Below are positions 1 through 38,660 of a stretch of DNA of 64,000 nt, one piece after another. Each line of letters starts with the position of its first letter. Within the stretch, counting starts at the first letter, position 1. The stretch covers positions 4,020 to 68,019 of the forward strand of contig JALFYY010000007.1 of NCBI GenBank assembly GCA_022783865.1, given 5' to 3'. The DNA comes from Bacteroidales bacterium (GTDB taxonomy: Bacteria > Bacteroidota > Bacteroidia > Bacteroidales > Paludibacteraceae). The translations under genes were made by a program, and so were the position numbers. Under the pieces are notes generated by a model that was given only the letters and a program-made list of their open reading frames with translations, was not told where the DNA came from and searched no databases.

Positions 1-103
1 TATCAACAACCATTATGTCATATTTAGAATTATCTATGGACGAAAGACATTTCTTTATCCATGGACAAAAATTATAGGCAACTATCACAATAAGTACTTT
101 CAT
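1..103 (-). CDS. glycosyltransferase family 2, N-terminal fragment (gene continues past window start)
   Basis: Not in the ORF track. Minus-strand ATG at 103-101 forms an ATGA overlap with the stop of the upstream gene. My translation, MKVLIVIVAYNFCPWIKKCLSSIDNSKYDIMVVD, fits the GT2 N-terminal motif. Confidence 0.55.
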   Translation of the reverse strand, partial: MKVLIVIVAYNFCPWIKKCLSSIDNSKYDIMVVD

Positions 104-795: not shown

Positions 796-886
796 ATCTT
801 CTTTTTATTATATAATTATACAACCCTTACTAAATTTATCATCTTCTAACAATTGTGTATTGTAGGTTACTATGATTATGAGAACT

Positions 887-1765: not shown

Positions 1766-1787
1766 CTGTTACAATCAATAGTTTTTC

Positions 1788-2372
1788 TTATTCTATATAT
1801 TTTATCCATTTGGCAGGATTGCCGCCATATATCGAATTGGCAATACAATCCTTGGTAACCACACTGCCTGCTGCAATGATAGTGTTCTTTTCAATATGCA
1901 CACCTTTTAGAATAATGCAATTCATGCCTATCCACACATTATCTTCCAAAACAACAGGTGCAGCATCAGGTACTCCAGCTCTTCCTTCAACCGATAATGC
2001 CACTTTGTGCGAATCGTTATCGCACAAAATTGTTCCCGGACCAATCCGGCAATCATCACCTAATTTTATCAATTCGTTGGCATGCAACATACACCCGTTC
2101 AATTTACAATTGTTACCTATCTCTATCCTCGCATCCTTATTGTATGTTGAAAGTGCCACCTGAAACGGCGAACCGTTTGGAAAAGAGTTGCACCAACATT
2201 TCCCTCGGAAACAAATTGTTCCTCTGTTATTTATATATAGGGGGGGGGTAAATACAACACAGCCGTTTTCATACACTACCCGATTGGCAGAAAGAAACCG
2301 ATTTTGTTTATTCGTTTTTCGTTTCGTCATCCATCTATTCCACTTATGTTGCAAAACCTTCAGTACGCTCAT
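1788..2372 (-). CDS. hexapeptide-repeat acetyltransferase
   Basis: 194-aa ORF with C-terminal LbH repeats (NVWIGMNCIILKGVHIEKNTIIAAGSVVTKD). It overlaps the upstream gene stop by 4 nt and contains a C9 tract at 2240-2248 read as TPP. Confidence 0.75.
   Translation of the reverse strand: MSVLKVLQHKWNRWMTKRKTNKQNRFLSANRVVYENGCVVFTPPLYINNRGTICFRGKCWCNSFPNGSPFQVALSTYNKDARIEIGNNCKLNGCMLHANELIKLGDDCRIGPGTILCDNDSHKVALSVEGRAGVPDAAPVVLEDNVWIGMNCIILKGVHIEKNTIIAAGSVVTKDCIANSIYGGNPAKWIKYIE
2240..2248. repeat. G9 (C9 on coding strand) homopolymer inside acetyltransferase ORF, in frame
   Basis: ...tatatag ggggggggta... read directly; on the minus strand it is acc ccc ccc cta, encoding T P P L. Confidence 0.9.
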
Positions 2373-4555
2373 AGTCTTTTCAGTATTTCATCATATATCC
2401 GTTTGCAATTATCCGAATCGTTATATGGAAAAAAACGGTTGATTTTATCCACATACGTTTTTTCGTTTTTCCACTCGTTATGTGCCAATTCTTGTAGTCG
2501 GTTGAGCAAGTCATGCATTTCTCGGACTACAGGTCCGAACCCCATCGTTTCAAAGTCGAAATATCCTTTTTGGAGATGTTCCCGAATGATTTGCTCATAG
2601 TCCCACCAATAATAAATGAGAGGTTTCTTCATATACGCAAAATCGAATTGTACACTCGATACATCCGTTATCAGCACCATTGACTCCTTCAGCATTGATT
2701 GCACCGATTCGGTTTCCGGATTGGCGATAATAACTACATCGTTTTGCACATCTGCAAACAAAGGCAAATAAGCATTCATCAGATAATGCGGGCAAAACTT
2801 CAGCACCATATTGTTGTCTCGCAAGAATGCTGCCACAGCCTTGTCTGTAAGCAAACCTTTTATCGCCTTATAATAACCATTTTGGGCAAAATCGGAGAGC
2901 GGGCATTCCGCCAATTGCCGACGCCATGTCGGCATCAGCAAGATTTGTCGCTTCTCCTCGTACCCGTGCAATCCGTCGAAACGGGCAAACCCGGTTAAGC
3001 CAACCTCGTTGATCCCGTATCCGAAATCTTTCCGAACGGCTTCATATTCCGGGGTAGCACCACAGATAAACAGATTTATATCTGAAGTCTTTTTCCCATA
3101 AAAAGGAGATACATCTGCATAAGTGATACCATGCTGCAAAAAAACATTGAATCCTTTAGGCGGAAACGGATAGTGTTTTTTTCCAAAGACAGTAGAAGGA
3201 TAGTTGGCATTGTATTGAGAACTTGCATACACTCCGGCTGCACAGAAATAGATTTTATGCTTCAGCGAGTTATATTTCAACCAATGACCGTGCAAATCAG
3301 CCTTGTCGGCAATTGCCTGATTACATACATAGTATGCTTTAATTTCCGGATGAAATTGCTGCAAATAATTGAAGAAATAGATACCGTTTTCTTGTGCCGT
3401 ATCATTGCGCTCACCCGTCAACCATATATCCTTAGGAACAAAACATGTAGCCACTTTCACTACCGACAATTCAATTCTATCAAGTACCAAGCGGCATATC
3501 AAAATCAATTTTTTAAGCAAATCCTTAGTAACCAAACGCAATGTTATACCCCATGAATCCGACACAATCCAAGTTCGGGAATACTTATAAAGTTTATTTA
3601 CCCATTTCTGCATTACCGATAACGACCAACGATGTGCGAAACACAATTTGAGAAACACATTGCAAGGCGATGACGGCTTTATCGGAATATCGCTTTCGCT
3701 TAAATGTTTAGCAATAGCGGCTTGCTGTTCACTCCATGTGGGTTGCTCTATCAATCGGAACATTTTTATGCGCCACAACATGGAGAACAATCTTTTGCGG
3801 CATTGCATCTGCACTGCCTTCTCCGAAAAATTGCCTTGTTCCAAATTACGGAAAAACAAAGCATGAGAATAGAAAAAGGCATCCCAATTCTGAGCAGTAT
3901 GCAGTTTTGGCTTAGAGAGTGTTCCTTGCCTATTGCGATAGAAATACAGCCCCTTATCAATGATACTGATTTTATCACATCTACATAACCATTCTGCCAG
4001 AAACGGTTGGTCTTCCGATACGATTGCAGGTTGTTCTATATCCCGGATCAAATCACGCTTATACAACTTATTCCATACCGGTAAGATGGAGGGATACAAT
4101 CTGTAATCCTTCAACACCTGTTCCGCTGTTAACACTCCTTCTATGCGCAAATCCGCATTAGGATATTCCACCCCGTCTTCGTCCACAGAGTTTGCATAGC
4201 ACCATGCCACATCAACTGCTTTTTGAGTAATAGAATCATACAATATCTGCGCCATTGCCGTATCTACATAGTCATCGCTATCTACAAACATGATATAAGG
4301 AGCGGTAGCAACTTTCAATCCTGTATTACGTGCCGGTCCGAGTCCTTGGTTTTGCTCGTGCCGAACCAGTCTAATCCTGTTGTCTTGTTGCATATAACGC
4401 TGCACTATTTCCACCGAATTATCCGGTGAGCCGTCGTCCACGCAGATGATTTCAATCTCACGGAGCGTCTGACCGACCAACGAATCCAAACATGCAGGGA
4501 GATACTTCTCTACATTGTAAATCGGAACAATGATGGAAACCTTAGGCGTTTGCAT
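2369..4555 (-). CDS. bifunctional GT2 glycosyltransferase / CDP-glycerol glycerophosphotransferase (TagF-like) fusion
   Basis: The N-terminus VSIIVPIYNVEKYLPACLDSLVGQTLREIEIICVDDGSPDNS is GT2. The C-terminal half, with QHGITYADV...FGYGINEVGLTGFARFD...ILLMPTWR, matches the Glyphos_transf (TagF/TarB) pattern as I remember it. Confidence 0.8.
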   Translation of the reverse strand: MQTPKVSIIVPIYNVEKYLPACLDSLVGQTLREIEIICVDDGSPDNSVEIVQRYMQQDNRIRLVRHEQNQGLGPARNTGLKVATAPYIMFVDSDDYVDTAMAQILYDSITQKAVDVAWCYANSVDEDGVEYPNADLRIEGVLTAEQVLKDYRLYPSILPVWNKLYKRDLIRDIEQPAIVSEDQPFLAEWLCRCDKISIIDKGLYFYRNRQGTLSKPKLHTAQNWDAFFYSHALFFRNLEQGNFSEKAVQMQCRKRLFSMLWRIKMFRLIEQPTWSEQQAAIAKHLSESDIPIKPSSPCNVFLKLCFAHRWSLSVMQKWVNKLYKYSRTWIVSDSWGITLRLVTKDLLKKLILICRLVLDRIELSVVKVATCFVPKDIWLTGERNDTAQENGIYFFNYLQQFHPEIKAYYVCNQAIADKADLHGHWLKYNSLKHKIYFCAAGVYASSQYNANYPSTVFGKKHYPFPPKGFNVFLQHGITYADVSPFYGKKTSDINLFICGATPEYEAVRKDFGYGINEVGLTGFARFDGLHGYEEKRQILLMPTWRRQLAECPLSDFAQNGYYKAIKGLLTDKAVAAFLRDNNMVLKFCPHYLMNAYLPLFADVQNDVVIIANPETESVQSMLKESMVLITDVSSVQFDFAYMKKPLIYYWWDYEQIIREHLQKGYFDFETMGFGPVVREMHDLLNRLQELAHNEWKNEKTYVDKINRFFPYNDSDNCKRIYDEILKRL

Positions 4556-4683
4556 TTATCATATCTATTAATTCATCTTACTTGCTTCAACATGCAGCCT
4601 TGTATACTGCAATATGGCGACAGACCAACCATCCGGACGTCACAATCTATCGCCTGATACCAAGCAGACACGTTTATAACGTG

Positions 4684-4691
4684 CAAAGTTA
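4684..4691 (-). promoter_or_regulatory. Bacteroidetes -7 box TAacTTTG
   Basis: Matches TAnnTTTG and lies 129 nt upstream of the ATG of the GT2-TagF gene. Confidence 0.45.
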
Positions 4692-4739
4692 CAAAAGTTT
4701 ATTGACCTATGCAAATCTCCTAAAAACAATTATGCAATA

Positions 4740-5021
4740 TTATTTCACCCAATGCATCAAACGGAACAATCGTTTCCAAAATTCTTGTCGGGCAACAGGT
4801 ATCAGAATCGGCTTACTCATCTGTTTGATAGCACGATAGTAGGTCGATTTGCTGCAATGCAAATCAAGCGTTATGTCTATCCAATACTTCTGCGGATGTT
4901 GCAAATGGTACTCATAGTAACAAAAATAATTGGTTGTCTGCACTGTGATATAACCGGCTTCAACAAGCGGGTAATACATATCCAACATCTGGAGAATACG
5001 CAAAAAATCGTAATGTGTCAT
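4740..5021 (-). CDS. hypothetical small protein, possible HTH regulator (start trimmed to Met31 of the track ORF)
   Basis: A TAccTTTG -7 box at 5055-5062 (minus) lies inside the longest ORF, so the start is more likely ATG 5021. The C-terminal CSKSTYYRAIKQM resembles an HTH recognition-helix motif. I did not recognise a family. Confidence 0.4.
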   Translation of the reverse strand: MTHYDFLRILQMLDMYYPLVEAGYITVQTTNYFCYYEYHLQHPQKYWIDITLDLHCSKSTYYRAIKQMSKPILIPVARQEFWKRLFRLMHWVK

Positions 5022-5054
5022 AACTGTAAACCATTGTAAGGATTTATTTGCGTG

Positions 5055-5062
5055 CAAAGGTA
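5055..5062 (-). promoter_or_regulatory. -7 box TAccTTTG
   Basis: 34 nt upstream of ATG 5021. It is divergent from the box at 5123. Confidence 0.45.
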
Positions 5063-5122
5063 CGGCCGGCAAAGCACATTTCATTCCCAAACTTTTGGGA
5101 ATGGAATACATAAACTTTTATC

Positions 5123-5130
5123 TACCTTTG
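5123..5130 (+). promoter_or_regulatory. -7 box TAccTTTG
   Basis: 66 nt upstream of the 51-aa ORF. Confidence 0.45.
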
Positions 5131-5195
5131 CCGGCGCAAAACCACAGACGAGTTTTGCACCAACCCATATATAAACATTTTAACACATTATTCGT

Positions 5196-5351
5196 ATGAA
5201 ACAAAACGCAATCCGTGCCATTATGGCAGTGGCAGTAGAAGCCATCGAGCTCGCATTCGACAGTCCGCATCTCACCTCCGAACGCCGCAAGCAGTTGGGC
5301 GAGATGTACGTATGGATCAGCAAACAACTGCACAAAAACGAACCTCTATGA
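5196..5351 (+). CDS. unannotated 51-aa ORF, translationally coupled to the DUF4248-like gene
   Basis: Below the ORF-track cutoff. My translation is MKQNAIRAIMAVAVEAIELAFDSPHLTSERRKQLGEMYVWISKQLHKNEPL. The stop TGA (5349-5351) overlaps ATG 5348 of the next gene (ATGA). A TAccTTTG box lies 66 nt upstream. Confidence 0.35.
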   Translation: MKQNAIRAIMAVAVEAIELAFDSPHLTSERRKQLGEMYVWISKQLHKNEPL

Positions 5352-5527
5352 AAGGCAAAGCCATGCTGAAATCGGAATTAGCCCGCGAAGCAGGCGTAAG
5401 CAGACGCACCCTGTATCAGTGGCTGAAAACCGATGAAGAAGTATTGCGGCAGATGGGTGTGACCAAACACACCCGTCTGCTCCCGCCGCAAGCCGTGAAA
5501 TACCTTCGGGAAAAATACTCAATTTAG
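5348..5527 (+). CDS. DUF4248-like helix-turn-helix protein
   Basis: MKGKAMLKSELAREAGVSRRTLYQWLK...LLPPQAVKYLREKY fits the small Bacteroidales DUF4248 HTH family as I remember it. The start was moved from 5312 to 5348 because of the ATGA coupling. Confidence 0.65.
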   Translation: MKGKAMLKSELAREAGVSRRTLYQWLKTDEEVLRQMGVTKHTRLLPPQAVKYLREKYSI

Positions 5528-5696
5528 TTGATAATTAATATTTAACAGACAATATTGCATTATCAGACAATTTATAGAGACGAAGCGTGCACCGTCTAAA
5601 TGCCCCGATTAATGCCCGTGTAATTATCGTTCGTTCATAAGCGAACAATAATGAGTGCCTGAGCCGGACGTCCCAGCCTGCGACAATAACAATTGA

Positions 5697-5755
5697 TGAC
5701 CCTTGTATGACCCCTGTATAACCCTTGCGAGGGGTGCGTAAGGGGTACTACCGGA
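5697..5755. repeat. dispersed repeat, copy 1 (25-nt core TGACCCTTGTATGACCCCTGTATAA plus ~35 nt related tail)
   Basis: The 25-nt core is identical to 46033-46057. The tails share a small hairpin and the string ...GC(G/A)TAAGGGG / ...ACGCAAGGGG. Confidence 0.85.
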
Positions 5756-5816
5756 AGTGAGCGGGCAAAGCCCTAATTGAGAAACTGAATCATTTTATGC
5801 AGGGCGATATATATGA

Positions 5817-6221
5817 TTATTTTTTTGCGTGAAAGAAGCGGCGCAATATCAAGAAGTTCACCGGTATAACAATGGCATAAACAGGTATGGGAGCCCACAC
5901 TTCAGGAATCCCTATCCATAAGAACAGTTCCAATAGCAAAATATGCAGCGTATAGTTGATAACATGACTGAGAGCAAAACCGGCACCGTTTTTAACACTC
6001 GGTTTCGTGCGGAAAGTAAAATAGTTGGTAAGCAGATAGTTGATGCAAAAACTAACTGCATACCCTATCGTATAAGCGAGCCAGGTCCAAATCCACAGAT
6101 TGAGCAACAAATATACACCATAGTGTATCCCTGTTGCTACTACACCCACCACACCGAAACGAAACAATTCTTGCCAATTTTGTGGAATCTTCTGAAAAAA
6201 GGAATTAGTATTCATTCCCAA
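5817..6221 (-). CDS. gtrA: GtrA-family membrane protein (polyisoprenol-sugar flippase-like)
   Basis: 134 aa with 4 predicted TM segments. FRFGVVGVVATGIHYGVYLLL and C-terminal LILRRFF are typical of GtrA-like proteins. Confidence 0.85.
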   Translation of the reverse strand: MGMNTNSFFQKIPQNWQELFRFGVVGVVATGIHYGVYLLLNLWIWTWLAYTIGYAVSFCINYLLTNYFTFRTKPSVKNGAGFALSHVINYTLHILLLELFLWIGIPEVWAPIPVYAIVIPVNFLILRRFFHAKK

Positions 6222-6234
6222 AAAAGGTTAGTTC

Positions 6235-7881
6235 TTATTTCTTATTCAAACGGATATCTCTCACTTCCCGTTTATCTGCCGTGGCCGACACTATGACATA
6301 ACGCCAATTATCATCGTTAAATTGACGCCTTTCGATTAAATCTATCGTATATGGACGTGCTTGCCGATGCATTATCTTGTCTTTGCATTTATCAACAATA
6401 GTTGTTGCATAGCCACTATATGAAACACTAAATTGTTGATAATCTTCTTCAATAGGCAAACGGACAATATAATAAGATAGTTGCGTAGAAGCATAGAGCA
6501 TCGAATCAGATTGATTTTCCGGTACACACGTTGCAATAATCTGTTCTTTGCTTTCCGGAAGTATCAGTGTACAATCGGTTTGCCCACTTTTATTGAGGTA
6601 ACGAGAAAAAAGCGAGGCTATTATCATTCTGTCATAAAACCCATCTAATGCAAATTCATGAACATAATTGCGATAGAAACTACCTTGCATGACTTCTCTA
6701 TTGAAATGCTCAAATTCGCCATCTACACAATAATCGTTTTGATTATATGTAGTTTTTGTTTTTTCAAAACTATTATATAGTTGCTGCCGATACCAATATG
6801 CAGGGATATAGGTAGTTATACATAAAACGATTGTTATACCTGCAACAACATATTCTGCTTTTTGAGATAGACGGATATAACGATAGATAAATCGGATACA
6901 AAGTACAATAGAGCATATTGCAATCAAGGTAAATTGAGTTTCTCCATTATATGCCAATATTAAAGCAAAAAGAATAGCAAACAGAGGTGCTAAGAAAAAG
7001 AGGATATTGTCTTGAATAAAGGTAGGATGTATGTTGCGCTTTTTGTCAATCAAGAAACTCACAATGGCTAAAACTGCAATAATATATGTCGGTGGGACAT
7101 GCTTTAATATCTGTATAATAGTATGAATCAACTTAAAAATAGTCAATTCGTTTTTTCCCACACGCACAAAGTTACCAGGAGCAAATATAGCAAAACATGC
7201 ACCTATGCCAAATGCCAATACTAAATACAAAAGAGTAGAACGAGTATTTTTGAGGTGGAAAATGTGATAGAAGAACAGAGCACCGGCAATTCCAATACAG
7301 AAACTTTCTTGCCAACTACCACAAACCAATGCAAACAATATAATCAACACATTTTTCCACCACGGATATTGGATATTGTCTTCTTTGATATGGAAGTAAA
7401 TGCACAAAAAGAATGTATATACAGCCGCCGACCACATATAGTTAACCACAAAAGCAATCGCCCCATAGAACATAACCCCAGGCAATGGGATAAGCAACAG
7501 CATTCCTAACAGCAACCAGTATTTGTCAATACGACTATGCGTACGCCTACGGATAAGATATAACAAACTCATCAGGAGTAATATAAACATGAAGGTACTA
7601 AATACGAAAAATGTTTCTGCTCCACCATATCCACAGAAAAACTGCACAAAACAATGTACTAAAAAACGCCCGTTCCAGTTGTTGTACGACCACCAATTTG
7701 AAATCAATACCTCTTTTAGATTATCTATATAGTTATATTCCTCTTCACCACATACAGAACTATAATATAAATCATCCAAACAACAAGGTATATATTGTCT
7801 AACCAACAGATAATATACTATCCCGCAGATAGCAAAGAACAGATAGTCATATTTGGTGAATTGTCGGAAAAAATGTCGCAT
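6235..7881 (-). CDS. polytopic membrane protein, GtrC-position / GT-C-like glycosyltransferase candidate
   Basis: 548 aa with at least 10 hydrophobic segments followed by a soluble C-terminal domain. It sits between gtrB and gtrA and is AT-rich (about 38% GC). Confidence 0.65.
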   Translation of the reverse strand: MRHFFRQFTKYDYLFFAICGIVYYLLVRQYIPCCLDDLYYSSVCGEEEYNYIDNLKEVLISNWWSYNNWNGRFLVHCFVQFFCGYGGAETFFVFSTFMFILLLMSLLYLIRRRTHSRIDKYWLLLGMLLLIPLPGVMFYGAIAFVVNYMWSAAVYTFFLCIYFHIKEDNIQYPWWKNVLIILFALVCGSWQESFCIGIAGALFFYHIFHLKNTRSTLLYLVLAFGIGACFAIFAPGNFVRVGKNELTIFKLIHTIIQILKHVPPTYIIAVLAIVSFLIDKKRNIHPTFIQDNILFFLAPLFAILFALILAYNGETQFTLIAICSIVLCIRFIYRYIRLSQKAEYVVAGITIVLCITTYIPAYWYRQQLYNSFEKTKTTYNQNDYCVDGEFEHFNREVMQGSFYRNYVHEFALDGFYDRMIIASLFSRYLNKSGQTDCTLILPESKEQIIATCVPENQSDSMLYASTQLSYYIVRLPIEEDYQQFSVSYSGYATTIVDKCKDKIMHRQARPYTIDLIERRQFNDDNWRYVIVSATADKREVRDIRLNKK

Positions 7882-7906
7882 ATAATATATTATGAATTAG
7901 TTGTGA

Positions 7907-8877
7907 TTATTTTTCACTGATGGTACATTGCCGTTCACCGTTGTATTCTTGCGCCAAATATACCGGACGTCGTTTCACTTCGTTGAAAATACGGCCTAAA
8001 TACTCACCGATGATACCAATCGTAATCAGTTGGATACCACCCAGAAGCAGAATAACGATAATCAATGTAGGGAAACCGGCAACAGGGTCACCAACGATTA
8101 ATGTTTTGATAAAGTAATATAGCCCGTAGATAAATGCCCCCAACGCTGTTAACAAGCCGACATAGGTAGCAAATCTGAGTGGCGCAGTAGTGAAAGAAGT
8201 AATGCCTTCTATCGCCAAATTGAGCAATCCCATGAAATTCCATTTGCTTTCTCCGGCAATGCGCTCTTGTTGTTCAAACAGAATCTCTTGTTTGCGAAAT
8301 CCTATCCAGCAATACATGCCTTTGGTATATCGTTCGCTCTCACGCAGCCGGCGCAAAGCATCAATGGCTTGACGATCAAGCAAACGGAAATCACCCACGT
8401 TTTGCAAAATGTCAAAGCGCGTAGCATGGTCTAATATTCGATAGAAAAGCAGGCTCAGTTTCTTCCTTATCCAAGGCTCTCTTCCCCGTGTTTTCCGACG
8501 GGCATATACATCTTGCACCTCACCGAAGTTCCATATTCTCAACATTTCAGGAATGAGCGTAGGCGGGTGCTGCAAATCGGCATCCATAATGATGACAGCA
8601 TCTCCTTTGGCATAATCAAATCCGGCAAGCATGGCATTCTCTTTGCCAAAGTTACGGGACAAATCCACATACGACACCCTTGGGTCTTGCTCTCTGAGCG
8701 ACTTGATTATATCTAACGTATGGTCTTTTGACCCATCGTTAACAAACAGAAATTCAAATTGATACGAATGGGCGGGGGGGGCAAAATTTCACCTGCAACT
8801 TCAGAAATCGCCTTGTAAAGCGCCGGCAACGATTGCTCTTCGTTGTAGCATGGAATAAGAATGGTGATTAGTGCCAT
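7907..8877 (-). pseudogene. gtrB: gtrB-like polyprenol-phosphate glycosyltransferase (GT2), frameshifted in a C8 tract
   Basis: Two track ORFs (8713-8901 and 7907-8677) make up one gene. MALITILIPCYNEEQSLPALYKAISEVAGEILPPP is in one frame and (A)HSYQFEFLFVNDGSKDHTLDIIKSLREQDPRVSYVDLSRNFGKE... is in the next. The switch point is the G8 run at 8774-8781 (C8 on the coding strand). A length of C9 or C6 would restore a single ORF. Confidence 0.8.
8774..8781. repeat. G8 (C8 on coding strand) homopolymer at the gtrB frameshift point
   Basis: ggc gggggggg caaaat read directly. A TGA in the downstream frame lies just 5' of the tract, so the frame switch must occur at or just after the tract. Confidence 0.9.
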
Positions 8878-8898
8878 ATTGTGTTTACGTTTACGCTG

Positions 8899-8906
8899 CA
8901 AAGGTA
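8899..8906 (-). promoter_or_regulatory. -7 box TAccTTTG (gtrB)
   Basis: 22 nt upstream of the MALITIL ATG at 8877. Confidence 0.5.
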
Positions 8907-8940
8907 CGGAAAAGATTACATATGAACAAGAGGCTATTTA

Positions 8941-9004
8941 GAGATGAGTAGATGAGTAGTTGAGAAGTTGAGTAGTTGAGTAGTTGAGTAGTTGAGTAGA
9001 TGAG
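8941..9004. repeat. tandem array of eight 8-bp words (TAGWTGAG family)
   Basis: gagatgag tagatgag tagttgag aagttgag tagttgag tagttgag tagttgag tagatgag. The array starts about 35 nt upstream of the gtrB -7 box. Confidence 0.9.
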
Positions 9005-9116
9005 AAATTCGCAAAGCAAAAAAGCAGAAAGTACCATATTCGGGAAAAAGCGGGAAATATTGGGAAAGAACAAGTAGATACGGGAAAGAGCGGGAAGATG
9101 CGGTTGCTAAAGACAG

Positions 9117-9124
9117 TAATTTTG
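9117..9124 (+). promoter_or_regulatory. -7 box TAatTTTG (lysis-like operon)
   Basis: 59 nt upstream of ATG 9183. Confidence 0.5.
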
Positions 9125-9182
9125 CAACCGAAATCGATTTCCATCAAGTCAACCCAAAATGTAAAACCAAATCCAAATCATT

Positions 9183-9500
9183 ATGAGCAAAATTGTTCCA
9201 ATGGATCTAATCAACGTCATGCGAGGCAAAGTGTGCGAGCACAGTGATTTCTATTTCCAGAAACGCAACGGACAGATTTATACCGGCCGCATCTGTGAGC
9301 CCCGCAACTTGCAAACCAATCCGTACAGCACAGACGAGCTGGCACGCCAAGAAAAATTCCGTTCGACCCGGGCTGCTATGGCTAATCTGACCGACGAACA
9401 GAAAGCAGCATACAAGACTGCCTTCCGAAAACAAAACAAGTACCCAACACTGCAAGGATATATCTTTGCACAAGAGTACAAGAATTTGACAAATGCGTAA
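9183..9500 (+). CDS. small conserved hypothetical protein, tandem paralog 1
   Basis: 105 aa. It shares GKVC.H ... RIC.P ... KY.TL.G.IFA..Y with the next ORF. A TAatTTTG box lies 59 nt upstream. Confidence 0.6.
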   Translation: MSKIVPMDLINVMRGKVCEHSDFYFQKRNGQIYTGRICEPRNLQTNPYSTDELARQEKFRSTRAAMANLTDEQKAAYKTAFRKQNKYPTLQGYIFAQEYKNLTNA

Positions 9501-9549
9501 TTGCTTCAACTAAAAACATTTTATCAACCTATTCAATTTATCATTCATT

Positions 9550-9861
9550 ATGGCAAAAGTTGTTTATATCGACCCCATCGACCACATTTCCGGAAAGGTA
9601 TGCAGTCACACCCAAACCATCTTCATGCACCGCGGTGATAGCGGTACCAACTTCACCTCACGTATCTGCAACCCTCACAAGGGTGCCCCGTCCGACGGAC
9701 AGAAAGACGCAATGGCAGCTTTCGCAGCCGCACAGGCAAAAGTGAGTGAAGTGATGTCCGACCCCACGCAGCGCCAAGCCGCTACTCAGCGCTTCAAGAA
9801 CCAAACCAAGTACAAGACCTTGCGTGGCTTCATCTTCGCTGAGAACTACGGACAGGCGTAA
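9550..9861 (+). CDS. small conserved hypothetical protein, tandem paralog 2
   Basis: 103 aa and colinear with 9183-9500 (MAKVVYIDPIDHISGKVCSH...SRICNP...KYKTLRGFIFAENY). Confidence 0.6.
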   Translation: MAKVVYIDPIDHISGKVCSHTQTIFMHRGDSGTNFTSRICNPHKGAPSDGQKDAMAAFAAAQAKVSEVMSDPTQRQAATQRFKNQTKYKTLRGFIFAENYGQA

Positions 9862-9904
9862 ACGCAGCTATTGAATATCAAATATTAAATATCGGATATT
9901 CGTT

Positions 9905-10090
9905 ATGCGCAGCACCTTGCAAATCATCTTGGCAATCAGTATGGCTTCGTTTGGAGCCATACTGATTCTCACCGCCTTCTTTGTTCCGCCTATGGGCAAA
10001 ATCGACGCTTCGGTGCTCACGGCTTTTGGCGAAATGCTCACCTTCAGCGGCACCGTACTCGGTATCGACTATAAATACAAGCAGAGATAA
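9905..10090 (+). CDS. two-TM small membrane protein, holin-like
   Basis: 61 aa with hydrophobic segments at about residues 5-27 and 36-55 and a charged tail DYKYKQR, which is class II holin topology. It lies immediately upstream of a putative cell-wall enzyme. Confidence 0.5.
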   Translation: MRSTLQIILAISMASFGAILILTAFFVPPMGKIDASVLTAFGEMLTFSGTVLGIDYKYKQR

Positions 10091-10160
10091 AAGGACAATG
10101 GAATAAGGAGCCAGGAGTAAGGAACCAAGACAAATTGCCTTTGTCAACTGCCAACTTTTC

Positions 10161-10180
10161 AGACGGGGCACGCCCCGTCT
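10161..10180. repeat. REP-like 20-nt palindrome AGACGGGGCACGCCCCGTCT (copy 1)
   Basis: A perfect palindrome followed by CTACA, located between the holin-like and endolysin-like genes. Confidence 0.9.
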
Positions 10181-10249
10181 CTACAGAGCGTCAAATTGTA
10201 AATAGTCCTTTATCCTTGTTCCAATCGTCAAATTGTCAAATCGTAAATT

Positions 10250-10759
10250 ATGAAACTCACTTTAATCCGTAAAACAACCGCATCAACTCCCCCGCCCTTT
10301 CGGGAGGACATTAGGAAGCCTGACAAATCTGTTGTCGATTGTTCAGACTCCAATAGTCAAATTGCGAAATCGTCAAACTGTCAAATAGGAATGCTCTTTG
10401 ACGGCGACCGCAAACTTTGCGACACTCTCGAACCTATCGGCATCGTACCCTTGGGCTGGTACCGCCTCAGTCTGACCTACAGCCCGCGTTTCAAACGCCC
10501 GTTGCCCCTGCTCCACCACGTGCCCGGACACAGCGGCATCCGCATACACGCAGGCAACACCCTCCGCGATACCGCCGGCTGCATCCTTGTCGGTACTTTA
10601 ACGCACGATGACGTTTCGCTCACCAATGCCCGCCAAGCAGAACAACTGATTGTGAAACTTTTGCAAAACTGTGCACAGAATGAAGAACATTATATTGAGA
10701 TTGCTACTCCTCAGTACCGCAATGCTGAGTTGGAGTGCATGCAGTTGTTGGAAGAATAG
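10250..10759 (+). CDS. DUF5675-like protein, putative peptidoglycan-acting enzyme (endolysin candidate)
   Basis: The core LCDTLEP...YRLSLTYSPRFKRPLPLLHHVPGHSGIRIHAGNTLRDTAGCILVG has an H..GN...DT.GCILVG signature reminiscent of the YkuD-type His/Cys active site. The family assignment is from memory. The N-terminus carries about 37 extra residues built from repeat words. Confidence 0.55.
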   Translation: MKLTLIRKTTASTPPPFREDIRKPDKSVVDCSDSNSQIAKSSNCQIGMLFDGDRKLCDTLEPIGIVPLGWYRLSLTYSPRFKRPLPLLHHVPGHSGIRIHAGNTLRDTAGCILVGTLTHDDVSLTNARQAEQLIVKLLQNCAQNEEHYIEIATPQYRNAELECMQLLEE

Positions 10760-11102
10760 TTATCAATCGGTACAGCGCACAGATTCTGCCGCCTCACGCC
10801 ACTCGTGGCAAGCCGACAGTGTGCGGTTGGAGCACAGCTGCTTTGTATTGATCCGGGGTGACACCGTCCTCATCCGCGACACCATCTTCCGCGACCGCCT
10901 CCGCACCCTCACCCGCTCAGATACCATCTATCAAAAGCAAGAGGTGTATGTAGAGAAACCCGTGCGCTATGTGCCACGGTTCTACAAGGCGTGTGCTACC
11001 CTACTCGGACTGATACTGCTTGCTATCGGATGGTGGTGTATTTGGAAGATAAGGAACCGGAAAAGTCAGGGCAACCGCATCAAAATTTTATCAACTAATT
11101 AA
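10671..11102 (+). CDS. lipoprotein-signal plus C-terminal TM protein, unimolecular-spanin-like
   Basis: N-terminal signal with Cys (LLLLSTAMLSWSAC), a beta-rich middle and a C-terminal TM (ACATLLGLILLAIGWWCIWKI). It starts out of frame, 89 nt inside the preceding gene. The last about 12 codons run into the 20-bp inverted repeat. Confidence 0.45.
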   Translation: MHRMKNIILRLLLLSTAMLSWSACSCWKNSYQSVQRTDSAASRHSWQADSVRLEHSCFVLIRGDTVLIRDTIFRDRLRTLTRSDTIYQKQEVYVEKPVRYVPRFYKACATLLGLILLAIGWWCIWKIRNRKSQGNRIKILSTN

Positions 11103-11202
11103 CTTATTGATAATCAAATGTGACATTTTATGATATTAGATAAGATACAAAATTGACAAGTATTGATTGTCTGGCTGTTGACATTTTGATGCGGTTGCCC
11201 TG
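11067..11202. repeat. perfect 20-bp inverted repeat (CAGGGCAACCGCATCAAAAT / ATTTTGATGCGGTTGCCCTG) flanking a 96-bp AT-rich spacer
   Basis: The arms are 11067-11086 and 11183-11202, checked base by base. Both converging ORFs (10671-11102 and the GT2 remnant) terminate inside the spacer. Confidence 0.9.
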
Positions 11203-11463
11203 CCTTGACACTGATTTAGGCAATATTCCCAATTCTTCACATGCCCAAGGTTCTTAGGATGATGCTTTACGCTGATGCAGGAATGTTTTGCGGCGTATGT
11301 ATCAAGAATCTGCCCTGTAGTATCGGTAGAACAATCATCTCCTACGATAATTTCGTAGGAGAAATTGACTTCTTGCGCCAAGATACTATCCAAGCACTCG
11401 GATATATTGCTCTTGGTTGTAAGTAACAACCATTATACTCAATTTGGGTTTTGCTTGTTTCAT
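11136..11463 (-). pseudogene. GT2 glycosyltransferase remnant (frameshifted and 3'-truncated)
   Basis: ATG 11463 gives MKQAKPKLSIMVVTYNQEQYI and then a stop. The next frame continues SECLDSILAQEVNFSYEIIVGDDCSTDTTGQILDTYAAKH...HVKNWEYCLNQCQG. Similarity to the neighbouring paralog (HVLNYRRAFQTCTGDY) ends exactly at the right arm of the 20-bp IR. Confidence 0.7.
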
Positions 11464-11470
11464 ACAAATA

Positions 11471-12358
11471 TTAGTTCCTATGTTTTTTTAGAAAAACAGG
11501 TGGTATAAGACTTTTTAGAAAATATTGGATTATCGGCGGACAGATGCGCAACAAACGATGTTTGAAACCAGGTTTGGGCGGATTATATAGACATCGAATT
11601 TGGTTAAACTCTACAGAGTATTTACCTTGAAAAAGCGTGTCATATTGTTCAACCTGTTTCAATATAAGTTCTTTTTGCCCCTCTTTATCCAATCGACTCC
11701 ACAGACCGGCATCTTGGCAACGATAGACAGATGTTGACTCCTTGTGCTTGGCAAGGAAGCCCTTTTCTGCTAACATCAATTCCAAAAGCCAATCAAGCAT
11801 ATAAACTTGCCATAGTCTTTCATCTAATATCACTTGTTGAAGCGTTGCATTACGCAAGACACATGTGGACAGATTTGCAATCTTGTTGCCGGTAGCCTCA
11901 TCTTGTGCAGTAATCAACCATACATCACCTTTATCATCAGGAAAACTTGCAAAACCAAAACGCCCAGTACGCATATCATAAAGATACGGACGGGATGAAG
12001 ACAACACACACTCACGATGCAAATCAAGAAAATCCAAATGGCGCTGCAAATGCAATGGTGAGCACCACCAATCGTCTCCCTCCAAAATGGCTACATAATC
12101 GCCCGTACAAGTTTGAAATGCCCGACGATAATTCAACACATGCCCCATATTGGCAGCAGACGGCAAATAATGGAACGGGAAAGGCGATTGCTTTTCCATC
12201 TGACGGATAATTGCCAACGTATCGTCGGTTGAGGCGTCGTCTGCCACCAATACACGGACCTCAACATCGGAAGAGACACGTTGCATCAATACACTTTCCA
12301 AGGCCTGGCGAATGTATTTCTCTTGATTATAAGTAACTATTAATACATCTACTTTCAT
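11471..12358 (-). CDS. glycosyltransferase family 2
   Basis: MKVDVLIVTYNQEKYIRQALESVLMQRV...VLVADDASTDDT...ILEGDDWW. ATG 12358 is preferred over the TTG at 12382. Confidence 0.8.
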   Translation of the reverse strand: MKVDVLIVTYNQEKYIRQALESVLMQRVSSDVEVRVLVADDASTDDTLAIIRQMEKQSPFPFHYLPSAANMGHVLNYRRAFQTCTGDYVAILEGDDWWCSPLHLQRHLDFLDLHRECVLSSSRPYLYDMRTGRFGFASFPDDKGDVWLITAQDEATGNKIANLSTCVLRNATLQQVILDERLWQVYMLDWLLELMLAEKGFLAKHKESTSVYRCQDAGLWSRLDKEGQKELILKQVEQYDTLFQGKYSVEFNQIRCLYNPPKPGFKHRLLRICPPIIQYFLKSLIPPVFLKKHRN

Positions 12359-12382
12359 ATTTCCAGTTTCTTCGAGTAACAA

Positions 12383-13438
12383 TTACACAATTGCCCTATT
12401 CTTGCTTATGAATAGTCTTATCCAGCGAAATGGTTTGAGGAGGAACTTGCCTAAACGGTAAGCGTAAGAAGAACGGGCATCGCGTGCATCTTTCTTAAAT
12501 CGGAAGACCATTACACATAGGTTGGTATCCAAATGCAAATCTTCTGCTTTAGCATTATATTCATCAATGTATTGATTCAAATCAGCTTCCAAAGCCAATG
12601 GTAACAATTCTAAAATTTCATTTACTTTGAATATCGGTAACAAGCCTAATGTTTCTGAATCCTGTTTGGCATATTGCTGTTGAATCTCGTACACTCCTTT
12701 TCGATATTTAATCCATTGCGCAACAGTTAGAGGACGAGAGGCAGAGCCTTCATGTATGCGATAAGTTGCCGTAACCTCATTGACAAAATAAACAGCCGAA
12801 TGCAAGAAAAACTCCAAAGCCACTACAAAAGAGCCATCCACAACAGGTTGTCTTTGTATATCTTGCAACGCATCATAAACAGTTTTCCGATAAAGCCAAG
12901 TCATAGGAGCAATGTATCCCTGTGCTACCAAATGTTCGGCAAACGATACGGGAATCTTATTTATACCATTTGCGAAACATGCTTTATTTATAATTGTGCC
13001 TTTGGCATCGCAAGTATCATAATCAGTGTAGCAAAGCCCTATATCCGGATGTGTTTCAAGGAAGTCAACTTGCTTTTGAAGTTTGTGCGGATTGGTCCAA
13101 AAATCATCGCCTTCGCATATGGCGATGTAGGGGGCACCGGTGGCTTCTATGGCGGCATTCATTATTTTGGTTAAAGAACCGTCTTTTTTGCTGTATTGGT
13201 TCTCGGTTTCGTAGATGGGATGGATGATGTCGGGGTACTTGGCGGCATACTCACGGATAATGTCGGCGGAGTGGTCAGTGGAAGCATCATCGTGGACAAT
13301 GGCGACAAAAGGGAAATCGGTCTGCTGCATGACGAAACCTTCGAGGCAGTCTCGGAGGTAGGGCTCGTGGTTATAAACGAGGCATTTGATGGCGACTTTT
13401 ATGTCATTTCCATTCACTTTTGACATATAATTGCTCAT
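12383..13438 (-). CDS. glycosyltransferase family 2
   Basis: VAIKCLVYNHEPYLRDCLEGFVMQQTDFPFVAIVHDDASTDHSADII...ICEGDDFW, a pattern common in Bacteroidales capsule-locus GT2 enzymes. Confidence 0.85.
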   Translation of the reverse strand: MSNYMSKVNGNDIKVAIKCLVYNHEPYLRDCLEGFVMQQTDFPFVAIVHDDASTDHSADIIREYAAKYPDIIHPIYETENQYSKKDGSLTKIMNAAIEATGAPYIAICEGDDFWTNPHKLQKQVDFLETHPDIGLCYTDYDTCDAKGTIINKACFANGINKIPVSFAEHLVAQGYIAPMTWLYRKTVYDALQDIQRQPVVDGSFVVALEFFLHSAVYFVNEVTATYRIHEGSASRPLTVAQWIKYRKGVYEIQQQYAKQDSETLGLLPIFKVNEILELLPLALEADLNQYIDEYNAKAEDLHLDTNLCVMVFRFKKDARDARSSYAYRLGKFLLKPFRWIRLFISKNRAIV

Positions 13439-13647
13439 GTTATTGTATCCTTATTTGCTTATCTATTTACTTATCAATATCTCATAGTTTCACCTATTCC
13501 AAGACCACACATAGTCGGTATTCTCATAAAAGATTGTGGCTCTACTCAATATTCTTATCAAAATAGCCAATCAGTATTGATTATTAATCACCAATAGGAA
13601 GTAACCACTTGTAGATTCTAATAAAACTCTTGATTTACTGAATCTGC

Positions 13648-14535
13648 TCATCTTTTTTTATTATCAATTAGTTTCTTTTTATTCAATATATTCATAGCCA
13701 TACCATACATCGGTGGTCCTACAAATTTACCATTCTTCAGCGTTACCCCTTTGCCTTCATGCTGCGCTTCTTCATATAACTTCACCATTTCTTCTGCCCA
13801 AGCAATTTCATCTTCCGTTGGGGAAAAATACTGATGAACCAATGGTAATTCCTTCGGATTAAGAACCAACATACCTTCAAAACCTAATTTCTTTGATAGT
13901 TTTAGATTCTGCTCTAAATCTTCTAAATCGTGTACCTTAACGTGAACGGTATCAATAGGCAACACACCACACGCACGCGCTCCATTCACTATCATATTTC
14001 GCGCAAAGAAAATACTTTGTCCCTCGGGGTCATGTTGACCATGCAGACTAGTTACGTAATCTTCACATCCAAAAGCAACTGCTACTACACGATTAGGACA
14101 CGCCTTACAGATTGATTCAATATTCATCACAGCACCAACCGTTTCTATTAAAGGTATGACCTTAAATATGCCAACCGGTATATGCTTTTCATACTCAATT
14201 GTTTCCAAGAGTTTTCCTACGAAATAAACATCTTCCTCCTTATTAGACTTAGGATATACAAACCCTGTTATTCCCGGAATAGTCAATTGATATAAATCTT
14301 GTAGCAGTTCTCCACTCTCTCTATCATTAACACGCGGAAAAAGAAGTTTATCCTTGGATTCGGGCAACTGAACAAATGATTTTATATTATCTCTTGCCCT
14401 TTGTTTATCTTGGGGAGGAACAGAATCTTCTATATCCAGCAACAACACATCTGCATCTCTTCGAAGAGAACTCTCCAAAAGATGTTGGTTGTGAGCCGGC
14501 ACAAACATCAAACTGCGCATCAAATACTCATTCAT
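13648..14535 (-). CDS. HpcH/HpaI aldolase / citrate-lyase beta (CitE)-like lyase
   Basis: MFVPAHNQHLLESSLRRDADVLLLDIEDSVPPQDKQRAR and the later IPLIETV and AFGCEDY motifs are typical of the CitE/malyl-CoA lyase family. About 34% GC. Confidence 0.8.
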   Translation of the reverse strand: MNEYLMRSLMFVPAHNQHLLESSLRRDADVLLLDIEDSVPPQDKQRARDNIKSFVQLPESKDKLLFPRVNDRESGELLQDLYQLTIPGITGFVYPKSNKEEDVYFVGKLLETIEYEKHIPVGIFKVIPLIETVGAVMNIESICKACPNRVVAVAFGCEDYVTSLHGQHDPEGQSIFFARNMIVNGARACGVLPIDTVHVKVHDLEDLEQNLKLSKKLGFEGMLVLNPKELPLVHQYFSPTEDEIAWAEEMVKLYEEAQHEGKGVTLKNGKFVGPPMYGMAMNILNKKKLIDNKKR

Positions 14536-14993
14536 ACATTTTTCTTTTTTATAAGTACATGTCGACGGAAAGATAACACATCTTGACCATTCTGGTTACT
14601 TGCAATCGTCTCTACATACACGATACCACGATCCGATTTGGTATTAGACTCACGTTTATCAAGTACTTTTGTACGAACATATAAAGTATCACCAATAAAT
14701 ACCGGAGCCAAGTGCTTAATATTTTCGTAATCCAAATTAGCAATAGCCTTGCCACTAATATCGGGCACAGTCATACCAACAGAAAGCGAGAACACCAACG
14801 TACCGACTACCAGAATCCTTCCATGTTGATTACGACTGGCATAATCAGCGTTCGTATGCACAGGATGATGATTCATCGTTAGCAGACTAAAAAAATTATT
14901 GTCGCTCTCGAAAATAGTCTTGCTGAGTGAATGTTTTATTTCTTGACCGACTTCGAATTCTTCGAAGTACATGCCTAATTTACTTGGTTCCAT
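14532..14993 (-). CDS. MaoC-like (R)-hydratase/dehydratase
   Basis: Hot-dog fold pattern FSLLTMNHHPVHTNADYA...GRILVVGTLVFS. The start is set at Met21 (TAATG overlap with the upstream stop), and there is a 4-nt overlap with the downstream gene. Confidence 0.8.
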   Translation of the reverse strand: MEPSKLGMYFEEFEVGQEIKHSLSKTIFESDNNFFSLLTMNHHPVHTNADYASRNQHGRILVVGTLVFSLSVGMTVPDISGKAIANLDYENIKHLAPVFIGDTLYVRTKVLDKRESNTKSDRGIVYVETIASNQNGQDVLSFRRHVLIKKKNV

Positions 14994-15664
14994 TATCGTA
15001 TAATATGATTTAATTGTGGTTTTATTATTGCCGGATTGCCATATAACACACAATTATTATCAACTGATTTGGTTATATTTGATGACATTCCTACAATGTT
15101 ATTGTTGCCAATAATTATCCCATTTCTAATCGAAGAGTTAAGCCCTATAAAATTCTCATTTCCTATAGATAGTCCACTACCTACACAAACCTGACCTGCG
15201 AAATAATTATTATTGCCCACTTTAATATCATGCCCTAATAATGTACCCGAGTTAACAGTATTAAAGTTGCCCAATATAGCATTACAATTAACTACAACAT
15301 TCGCTAACAAAACATTACCAATGCCTATCTTTGCAGATTTTGCCAACATTACGGACGGATGAATAAAGTTACAAAACTTTTCTTGGGGGATATTCAGCTC
15401 TGTAAGGATTTGTGTCCTCTCTCGCATCGAATCCGGACGGTATAGTTGGTAAATAAATTTCACATCATCATACTTCTTAAACTTTTCGTATGCATCTTTG
15501 ATGTCGCACAAGATAGGGTAACCACTAACCTCATCACCTCCCGAATGATCATCTAAAGCAAGACCTAAGACTTCAATATCCATTCCAAATCGTTGTCTCG
15601 CGTCCCAGATTTGGTCTGCTATAACAATAGCCGTTCCACGACCACCAATTAATACAATTTTCAT
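14993..15664 (-). CDS. NeuD/PglD-like sugar N-acyltransferase (Rossmann-like N-domain plus LbH)
   Basis: MKIVLIGGRGTAIVIADQI N-domain followed by hexapeptide repeats (IGIGNVLLANVVVNCNAILGNFNTVNSGTLLGHDIKVGNNNYF...). Confidence 0.8.
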   Translation of the reverse strand: MKIVLIGGRGTAIVIADQIWDARQRFGMDIEVLGLALDDHSGGDEVSGYPILCDIKDAYEKFKKYDDVKFIYQLYRPDSMRERTQILTELNIPQEKFCNFIHPSVMLAKSAKIGIGNVLLANVVVNCNAILGNFNTVNSGTLLGHDIKVGNNNYFAGQVCVGSGLSIGNENFIGLNSSIRNGIIIGNNNIVGMSSNITKSVDNNCVLYGNPAIIKPQLNHIIR

Positions 15665-16659: not shown

Positions 16660-18222
16660 TCATATCTTATTTGCAACGCATTGTATCACACGCTCTACAT
16701 CCTCTTGACTTAATGCGTGGTGCATGGGGAGGCAGATGACGCTATCTGCCAACTTATGGGCATTAGGAAGATTAGCGGGCGTTGCTGACGCATACTTATC
16801 GTATGGGCTAAAGGTACTAATCAAAGGATAGAAATAGCGGCGCCCCAAGACATTTTGGGTCTTCATCTTCTCGTATAATGCGTCACGGCTCATACCATAT
16901 TGCGCTTCGTCCACAAAGATAGGGAAATAACTATAGTTATGCCTTACACCCGGCATATCGTCAAAGAAAGTGATACCTTCCACTCCGCGCAAAGCCTCGC
17001 GGTAACGGATGGCAACTTGGCGACGTGCTTCGATGGCAGCATCTACCTGCTTCAAATTGAGCAAACCATAAGCCGCACGCATCTCGTCCATCTTGCTATT
17101 GATACCCGGTGCAACGACCGTTGTCTCTCCACGGAAACCAAAGTTTTTCAAATTGTCGATATGCTCTTTCATCTCTTTGGAACGGCATATCAAGGCACCT
17201 CCCTCTATGGTATTATAGACTTTGGTAGCATGAAAAGACAAGGTGGACATGTCACCATACTGCAGCACAGAGACAAGCCTACCCCTTACCCCTCCCTTAA
17301 GGGAGGGGAGTTGGGCTACTGTTTCTTTGAGTTTAGATACTACTTGGTCGGGGTTATGCAGCAATTCTTCATTGGTAAAACGCAACTCTGTTACTCCTAA
17401 TTGTTGTAATTTGTACGTTCTGCGCGCATCTTCCTCTTGCTGCTCCTGAGTAAAATGGTAGCCACCATCCAACTCAATACTCAACCCCTTATCCACACAA
17501 AAGAAATCTACAATAAAGTCTTGGATGATATGCTGCCTACGGAAATGGAGTTCCAAACCATTTGCTTTCAATATATTCCACAGAACAGATTCTGCTTCTG
17601 TCGGATGTTTACGATGATACTCTGCATGCTCTTTCAGTTTTCCATACAAGACAGGATCTGCTGTATGAGCACCCCATTTGCTTACAAAAGACTCTTTTCC
17701 TTCATGGGAAAATTTAGGAGAGGCTATCTTTACGCCAAACGCATGGGCGGCATCATAAATAACACGCAAGTTGTACTTCTTTGCAATGGCATCGATACGT
17801 TCGACATCGCAGGGCTTTCCATACACATGCACCGGCATAATAGCCGTAGTACGGGGGGTGATAGCCGCTTCTATCTTATCGGGATCGATATTGCCTGTGC
17901 GCGGGTCAATATCCACAAAGACCGGCGTAAGTCCGTTCCACCAAATGGCATGCGTGGTCGCCACAAAAGAATATGGTGTGGTAATAACCTCTCCCTGTAT
18001 GCGAAGTGCTTGCAGAGCCGTGATAAGAGGCAAAGTGCCGTTGGTGAAGAGGGAGATATATTCTACTCCGAGATACTCTGCGAGTGCCTTCTCCAACTGC
18101 TGATGGTAGTAACCATTATTGGTAATCCACTTGCGATTCCAAATATCCTGCAACAACGCATTATACTCCTCCAAATCGGGGAGCAAAGGACAGGTAACGG
18201 TTATTTGACTGGTATTATCCAT
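16660..18222 (-). CDS. DegT/DnrJ/EryC1/StrS-family sugar aminotransferase carrying an in-frame DUF559 endonuclease-like insertion
   Basis: The aminotransferase motifs YDAAHAFGVK (aa 156-165) and TLSFHATK (aa 327-334) are separated by about 150 extra residues. These contain TEAESVLWNILK...FRRQHIIQDFIVDFFCVDKGLSIELDGGYH...RFTNEEL, the DUF559/Vsr-like pattern. Confidence 0.85.
   Translation of the reverse strand: MDNTSQITVTCPLLPDLEEYNALLQDIWNRKWITNNGYYHQQLEKALAEYLGVEYISLFTNGTLPLITALQALRIQGEVITTPYSFVATTHAIWWNGLTPVFVDIDPRTGNIDPDKIEAAITPRTTAIMPVHVYGKPCDVERIDAIAKKYNLRVIYDAAHAFGVKIASPKFSHEGKESFVSKWGAHTADPVLYGKLKEHAEYHRKHPTEAESVLWNILKANGLELHFRRQHIIQDFIVDFFCVDKGLSIELDGGYHFTQEQQEEDARRTYKLQQLGVTELRFTNEELLHNPDQVVSKLKETVAQLPSLKGGVRGRLVSVLQYGDMSTLSFHATKVYNTIEGGALICRSKEMKEHIDNLKNFGFRGETTVVAPGINSKMDEMRAAYGLLNLKQVDAAIEARRQVAIRYREALRGVEGITFFDDMPGVRHNYSYFPIFVDEAQYGMSRDALYEKMKTQNVLGRRYFYPLISTFSPYDKYASATPANLPNAHKLADSVICLPMHHALSQEDVERVIQCVANKI
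17289..17308. repeat. 20-nt perfect palindrome CCCCTCCCTTAAGGGAGGGG at the 3' edge of the DUF559 insertion
   Basis: Read directly. It is translated on the minus strand as PSLKGG inside the DegT ORF. Confidence 0.9.
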
Positions 18223-38487: not shown

Positions 38488-38543
38488 GGACGATTGGACA
38501 ATTGGACGATTTCACAATTGGACAATTTGACAATTCGAGATTG
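38488..38543. repeat. tandem array of seven 8-bp words (GGACAATT family)
   Basis: ggacgatt ggacaatt ggacgatt tcacaatt ggacaatt tgacaatt cgagattg. Confidence 0.9.
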
Positions 38544-38559
38544 AACGCCTATGATATGC

Positions 38560-38625: not shown

Positions 38626-38660
38626 TATTGCATTGAAGAGTAATGTATGACAAACATATT

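Follow-up and report, generated by a model that had tools for sequence, protein, structure and literature searches.

This analysis concerns a 64,000-nucleotide stretch of Bacteroidales DNA, hereafter the window (family Paludibacteraceae; contig JALFYY010000007.1 of GenBank assembly GCA_022783865.1, positions 4,020 to 68,019 of the forward strand), and within it an operon of five plus-strand open reading frames (ORFs) at 9183-11102. The first two encode small basic proteins, here named famA1 (9183-9500; 105 amino acids (aa), pI 9.6) and famA2 (9550-9861; 103 aa, pI 9.5); they are followed by genes for a 61-aa protein of a putative holin family (9905-10090), a 169-aa DUF5675 protein that is a candidate endolysin (10250-10759) and a protein resembling the unimolecular spanins (u-spanins) of phages (10680-11102). 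The ORF list of the window places all five genes where an initial annotation of this DNA had put them, and the TAATTTTG box upstream of them likewise. That annotation likened the five genes together to a phage lysis cassette embedded in a glycan locus; this description suits the last three genes, whereas the upstream pair does not consist of lysis genes. The GC content of the operon is approximately 0.47-0.52, compared with 0.33-0.45 in the flanking glycan genes.

The 61-aa protein has a strong hydrophobic segment (residues 3-31), a second one (residues 37-51) and a charged tail, DYKYKQR; it thus combines the small size, at least one transmembrane (TM) domain and the charged hydrophilic C-terminus by which holins are recognized. 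Its family is kept in related cellular loci, as seen in the family alignment, and it is also a phage family: we confirmed 173 relatives in IMG/VR and found the family in 57 GenBank phage records, which stem from cultured Bacteroides phages and from prophages of Porphyromonas gingivalis. Tail genes precede the holin-family gene in 77 viral loci, and the gene that comes after it, at a distance of -16 to +46 nt, encodes an Amidase_2 (11 loci), an Amidase_3 (10 loci) or a DUF5675 protein (8 loci), so that the family adjoins an endolysin gene in phage genomes, which is a second holin hallmark. The annotated order in PP754931 (Porphyromonas phage phage019b_ATCC49417), for example, is tail protein, hypothetical protein, the holin homolog, 'endolysin' and 'spanin'. 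Judging from these gene orders, the 61-aa family fills the canonical holin slot of Bacteroidales and Porphyromonas phages, which agrees with the earlier description of the protein as holin-like with a charged tail. The family has no usable match in Pfam, PHROGs, NCBIfam or PADLOC. The holin gene of the phage cassettes frequently comes together with genes for DUF6808-like proteins, which have a TM helix at the N-terminus and a C-terminus rich in Gly and aromatic residues (viral contigs L077, 3480-3998; L087, 6906-7478; L108, 6209-6724); these proteins may represent a further type of outer-membrane disruptor.

The 169-aa protein matches Pfam DUF5675 (PF18925) over residues 40-138 with 73.2 bits (cut-off 26.7, E = 1.9e-20), as do all 41 aligned relatives, and it matches PHROG 1501 with an E-value of 1.6e-10. 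An exact look-up of the window protein in the sequence collection returned no record. H100 and C111 of the motif RIHxGN...GCILVG, as well as most of its other residues, are invariant among the 41 homologs, and the His/Cys pair may be catalytic. The initial annotation had proposed a YkuD-type, DUF5675-like core; the DUF5675 part of this assignment is firm, while the tie to the YkuD/Tlde1 enzymes (MEROPS C82) appears weak. Both groups have a conserved His, and in both a Cys stands in a G-C-[IV] context; relatives of the window protein give side matches in Pfam to Tlde1_dom (14 of 41, best E = 0.0022) and to YkuD (6 of 41, best E = 0.0037), all of them under the curated cut-offs; the window protein itself matches neither YkuD (PF03734) nor Tlde1_dom (PF10908). 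A 2026 preprint independently places DUF5675 as 'C82-like' on the basis of predicted structures, states that its function is unknown and notes 'significant differences', which concern the His-to-Cys spacing and the overall topology. Our AlphaFold2 model of the protein has a mean predicted local distance difference test score (pLDDT) of 86.7 and is confident except at residues 12-43. This stretch is an in-frame insertion of 30 aa (90 nt, 10289-10378) containing a tandem repeat of 8 nt; the model shows it as a disordered loop, and the protein shares it with its three closest relatives only, most homologs being without it.

Carriers of DUF5675 include crAss-like phages, in which its annotation is transpeptidase or L,D-carboxypeptidase, and siphovirus-like contigs; some very large phage proteins contain it as one of their domains. 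Behind the holin gene of phages, it is one of three interchangeable wall enzymes, and on this ground we argue that it serves as an endolysin. Because it has neither a signal peptide nor a hydrophobic segment, its access to the wall would require a lesion in the membrane. Among their very few accessory genes, many Microviridae of 5-7 kb have one for DUF5675 (e.g. L012, PQ006894.1, 4710-5162), which fits a part in lysis for phages this small.

The fifth ORF opens with a GTG at 10671 (143 aa); its homologs begin at MKNIIL, so the start is probably the ATG at 10680, which gives a protein of 140 aa. The gene does begin out of frame inside the fourth, as the initial annotation had said, and the overlap is kept in related loci, but its length is then 80 nt and not the 89 nt first given. 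U-spanins are defined by a lipoprotein signal at the N-terminus together with a TM domain at the C-terminus (PMC6139136). The window protein has a signal peptide with a lipobox Cys (..LSWSAC), and in 12 aligned homologs a hydrophobic N-terminus is followed by an invariant Cys (SAC, TAC, SGC or SC); unusual lipoboxes such as AWAC work in u-spanins (PMC6139136). The C-terminal TM helix (hydrophobic residues 100-125 of 140) comes after a conserved PVRYVPRFYK motif. With its lipobox Cys, its C-terminal TM domain and its place as the last gene of a holin-endolysin cassette, the protein has the u-spanin architecture that had been suggested for it, and a homolog in the viral contig L079 stands directly after the holin gene (E = 8e-8). 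Its likeness to T1 gp11 lies in the lipoprotein signal, the C-terminal helix, a length of about 130-140 aa and the terminal position in the cassette. It differs in having periplasmic cysteines, which the 58 catalogued u-spanins lack (PMC6139136). We found no sequence similarity between the window protein and GenBank phage proteins, and a profile comparison with the P. gingivalis phage spanin gave no homology, only a common architecture; the tie to T1 gp11 is therefore architectural only. The family has no usable match in Pfam, PHROGs, NCBIfam or PADLOC.

The same five-gene order, for which a survey had been suggested, recurs in 29 fetched cellular loci that carry all four families in this order (roughly 20 distinct loci after near-identical contigs are merged), down to about 40-50% protein identity, and none of these lies in a prophage. 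The hosts are mostly Paludibacteraceae and Bacteroidales metagenome-assembled genomes from gut and rumen. The flanks of the cassette vary: rplQ and rpmA/rplU operons in L007, glycosyltransferases in L001, L154 and the window, and giant surface proteins in L010. Placement in a glycan locus is true of the window and specific to this lineage. None of 334 flanking ORFs matched the ORFs of the holin-bearing viral loci. Within the window, the earlier statement that phage structural genes are missing holds for the approximately 26 ORFs scanned (those at 100-15664 and the ten largest elsewhere), among which no phage genes were found; these ORFs encode glycan enzymes, an ABC transporter, an OmpA-family protein, amylases with type 9 secretion system tails and a UvrD/Cas4-type helicase. 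The ratios of nonsynonymous to synonymous substitution (dN/dS) between the window and L001 are, in gene order, 0.14, 0.13, 0.20, 0.34 and 0.25; all five genes are under purifying selection. The view that this is not a prophage remnant is borne out by the context here and in the 29 loci, and by this selection.

One further locus shows an exchange of lysis genes behind a famA pair. In L034 (7977-9723), an Amidase_2 gene and an ORF overlapping it come after the pair, in place of the DUF5675 and u-spanin genes; the product of the overlapping ORF has an N-terminal TM helix and a coiled coil and is i-spanin-like. No holin-family gene was detected in this locus, and the closest relatives of its Amidase_2 sit in Mu-like prophages.

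Several changes mark the copy in the window. Between the holin and lysin genes lies an inserted repeat element of about 160 nt (10091-10249), where L001 has a gap of only 22 nt; it contains the hairpin AGACGGGGCACGCCCCGTCTCTAC (10161-10184, plus strand) and 8-nt TCAAATTG-like repeats (10189-10249). This GC-rich hairpin is dispersed in the window, always on the plus strand (also at 38757-38780, 38856-38879 and 48440-48463), and in L001 and L153 it sits after the spanin stop codon. The last 14 codons of the spanin gene are replaced relative to its close relatives. At the right edge of the cassette, a 31-nt inverted repeat of 87% complementarity (11063-11093 and 11176-11206) reaches from the end of the spanin ORF into a truncated N-terminal fragment of a glycosyltransferase family 2 (GT2) gene (11136-11429, minus strand), and homology with L001, L153 and L154 stops near 11050, which suggests a rearrangement at this edge. 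On the other side of the operon and divergent from it stands a gtr-like trio, consisting of GtrA (5817-6221), DUF6056 (6235-7881) and a gtrB-like GT2 gene (7907-8901, minus strand); the reading frame of the last shifts at eight consecutive C on the minus strand (8774-8781), which divides the gene into two ORFs; this could reflect a phase-variable tract or an assembly error. Farther away, a DegT/DnrJ/EryC1 aminotransferase gene (16660-18222, minus strand) encodes a DUF559 endonuclease-like domain in mid-protein (residues 196-301) that splits the aminotransferase match.

These features invite the explanation that the operon is a functionless leftover of a decaying prophage's lysis genes, standing by chance beside an unrelated pair of small genes. 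The phage origin of the holin and DUF5675 families would agree with this, as would the repeat insertions, the altered spanin C-terminus and the local rearrangement indicated by two GT2 genes nearby, one frameshifted and one truncated. It is nevertheless a highly improbable account: the order is kept among unrelated flanks at the identities given above, all five ORFs are intact with dN/dS values of 0.13-0.34, the catalytic-type His and Cys and the lipobox Cys are retained, and not one of the 334 flanking ORFs is phage-like.

The two upstream proteins are paralogs, as the initial annotation had recognized, with 34% identity to each other. A profile search gathered 675 cluster representatives of their family, nearly all of 95-115 aa and basic (median pI 9.7-9.9, net charge about +8.6). 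In the genome scan, famA genes almost always occur as tandem pairs, whose first and second copies form old paralog classes, and some genomes have 2-3 copies. The pair stands without lysis genes in 33 loci and with the holin gene in 5, some of these loci being cut by contig ends; downstream of the loci with famA alone are genes for PFK, ThrRS, PheT, DXS or NamZ. A tblastn search of GenBank phages gave no famA matches, and in IMG/VR the family occurs on two contigs only, as a single gene each, adjoining a helix-turn-helix (HTH) ORF (L151, 6510-6695; L152, 1549-1734). The famA pair is cellular and does not belong to the lysis genes, and it is a more widespread unit than the cassette. The window encodes an HTH protein of 71 aa (5312-5527, plus strand) with 39% identity (E = 3e-13) to the HTH ORF beside those viral-collection famA genes. 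The AlphaFold2 model of famA2 (pLDDT 90) predicts a beta-hairpin and three helices, and Foldseek gave no significant fold match for it in the PDB. We rejected a zinc-finger assignment, as the two Cys residues are not kept in distant members. Matches to the AP205 coat in library searches with famA, holin and spanin members (2 of 84, E = 0.004) were at chance level. A possible pairing of an HU-like gene with an amidase gene at Bacteroides capsule loci was sought as an analogue and is not used here; according to the HU-HIG paper, conserved operon links are almost absent, and the amidase homologs sampled sit in Mu-like prophages.

The operon is separated from the gtrB-like gene by a repeat-rich divergent intergenic region (8945-9103), with a 7.5-fold 8-nt tandem array of TGAGTAGT (8945-9004) and a GGGAA-rich repeat with a 20-nt period (9041-9103). 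This region is followed on the plus strand by TAATTTTG (9117-9124), which reads as a Bacteroidetes-type -7 box and probably has promoter activity; of 61 loci, 19 have a TAnnTTTG within the 160 nt that precede their first famA gene, compared with a background of 0.08 per 160 nt. Five or six bases past this box, also on the plus strand, is the perfect palindrome GAAATCGATTTC (9130-9141), of which the window contains no other perfect copy. The block CGAAATCGATTTC does not vary among the window, L001, L013 and L014, where other intergenic DNA averages 62% column identity, and we regard the palindrome as a candidate operator. A scan for sigma-70 promoters and terminators was uninformative for this phylum. 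Tandem arrays with an 8-nt period and varying units are found in many promoter-proximal intergenic regions of the window; the 8-nt arrays of the window are at 8945-9004, 10189-10249, 10349-10392, 38488-38704, 39421-39451 and 56418-56446, and similar arrays of other units stand upstream of the famA operons in L010, L018, L022, L023 and L065.

The holin, DUF5675 and u-spanin-type genes together make up a complete lysis cassette of the Gram-negative type, to which the nearest concept is the type 10 secretion system (T10SS): clusters of holin, endolysin and spanin genes that lie outside phages, lyse a subpopulation of cells and release transcriptionally coupled proteins (PMC10847048). We therefore propose that the operon is a domesticated, phage-derived lysis cassette, located outside any prophage and downstream of the famA pair, that acts as a T10SS-like module for programmed lysis and release, with famA as its cargo or its controller; we put the probability of this reading at roughly 0.6. 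Transcription would begin at the TAATTTTG box and would probably be gated at the palindrome GAAATCGATTTC. The 61-aa protein would build up in the inner membrane and open it, the signal-less DUF5675 protein, as a Cys/His enzyme remotely like the Tlde1/YkuD L,D-peptidases, would then reach the peptidoglycan and cleave a bond there, and the u-spanin-type lipoprotein, with its C-terminal TM helix, would disrupt the outer membrane. Expressing cells, most likely a subpopulation, would lyse and release their cytoplasmic content, including the co-transcribed famA pair.

The cluster shares with the T10SSs known from Serratia (ChiWXYZ), Salmonella (TtsA and ChiA systems) and Yersinia entomophaga (YenLC) its evident descent from a phage lysis cassette and its position outside a prophage, next to a co-oriented, signal-less possible cargo (PMC10847048). 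As regards coupling to that cargo, famA is upstream, co-oriented and separated by short gaps in the 29 loci, while the cassette is missing from the 33 others mentioned above. The differences are that those systems belong to Enterobacterales and the present candidate to Bacteroidota; that they use a muramidase or an L-Ala-D-Glu endopeptidase, and not DUF5675; that their spanin is two-component, and here unimolecular; and that their cargo is a toxin or a chitinase, whereas the candidate cargo here is a basic pair of about 103 aa. The cassettes of Bacteroidales and Porphyromonas phages (PP754931; Bacteroides phages SJC01 and relatives) have a homologous holin family (35-55% identity) and the same order of holin, endolysin and lipoprotein/TM spanin, some of them with DUF5675. 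Unlike the cassette described here, they follow tail genes inside phage genomes of 30-55 kb, have mostly Amidase_2 or Amidase_3 and are never associated with famA. The class of mechanism is known; what is new is the phylum, the family of the enzyme, the type of spanin and the protein pair that goes with them, and our literature search found no paper on such a module in Bacteroidota.

Several observations weigh against this proposal. Of the two hydrophobic segments in the holin candidate, the second is weak. A Foldseek comparison of the DUF5675 model with the PDB returned nothing at E ≤ 0.001, the highest TM-score being 0.32 for Tlde1a (7uma_A, E = 3.1), and single-sequence and profile searches of PDB sequences gave nothing meaningful, so that the case for peptidoglycan activity draws on genomic context and weak homology. 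For famA there is no match in Pfam, PHROG, NCBIfam, PADLOC or the PDB that would point to a function, single-sequence and profile searches of PDB sequences again giving nothing meaningful, and the 33 loci without lysis genes indicate that famA does not strictly need the cassette. Finally, the repeat insertion between the third and fourth genes, the 30-aa insertion in the lysin and the replaced spanin tail mean that the copy in the window could be impaired.

The faint kinship of the enzyme also allows a non-lytic explanation, namely that DUF5675 trims or exchanges peptide stems as an L,D-carboxypeptidase or transpeptidase, like Tlde1, and is admitted to the periplasm by the small membrane protein in order to remodel the wall locally, for instance for the export of the neighbouring glycan, under the control of famA as a transcription or nucleoid factor. 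The weak Tlde1_dom and YkuD matches, the variable glycan genes adjoining the operon in this lineage, the operator-like palindrome at the promoter together with the basic character of famA, and the fact that T10SSs were originally proposed as non-lytic (PMC10847048) all speak for it. We consider it unlikely, because the glycan neighbourhood is not kept across loci, the spanin-type protein has no obvious role unless the outer membrane is disrupted, and the same holin family is paired with classic amidase endolysins in phages.

The abundance and diversity of famA bring in a further possibility, abortive infection, in which famA would sense a phage through foreign nucleic acid or a phage protein and free the cassette early, so that the cell bursts before progeny are made. 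Small, basic, paired proteins diversified into 675 clusters, several copies in some genomes, variable genomic contexts as seen with defence islands, and an effector module lethal by design would suit such a system. This is a very unlikely reading, as no PADLOC model is matched by any of the five proteins, the flanks examined showed no known defence genes, many famA pairs have no effector, and the purifying selection on famA is of an ordinary kind that gives no hint of an arms race. The empty PADLOC result, the lack of an evident use for a spanin if the outer membrane is not disrupted, and the conservation of order and sequence together mean that these alternatives fit less well than a domesticated lysis cassette.

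Within the proposal of a T10SS-like release module, the part played by famA may be that of a cargo or of a regulator of the lysis cassette. A bolder version, which we hold to be doubtful, is that famA1 and famA2 form a new class of small, basic, nucleic-acid-binding heterodimer tied to programmed lysis, either exported with DNA by the cassette (e.g. for building a matrix of extracellular DNA (eDNA), or for packaging or protecting DNA that is released) or acting as the switch that chooses which cells of a gut Bacteroidales population burst; in both cases, it would be the first T10SS-like, lysis-based release system described in Bacteroidota, made up of an uncharacterised holin family, a DUF5675 lysin and a u-spanin.

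To date, T10SS-type cassettes have been documented in Enterobacterales, with an analogous case in Clostridioides. If our reading of the operon is true, the holin of many Bacteroides and Porphyromonas phages, now annotated as 'hypothetical protein', would gain a name, and DUF5675, a widespread family in crAss-like phages and microviruses, would acquire a role as a lysin that can be tested. The approximately 675 clusters of small basic proteins, at present an orphan family, would become accessible to functional study as well. Programmed lysis-based release would then extend to a dominant phylum of the gut, where a module of this kind could affect how vesicles are produced and how eDNA and public goods are released.

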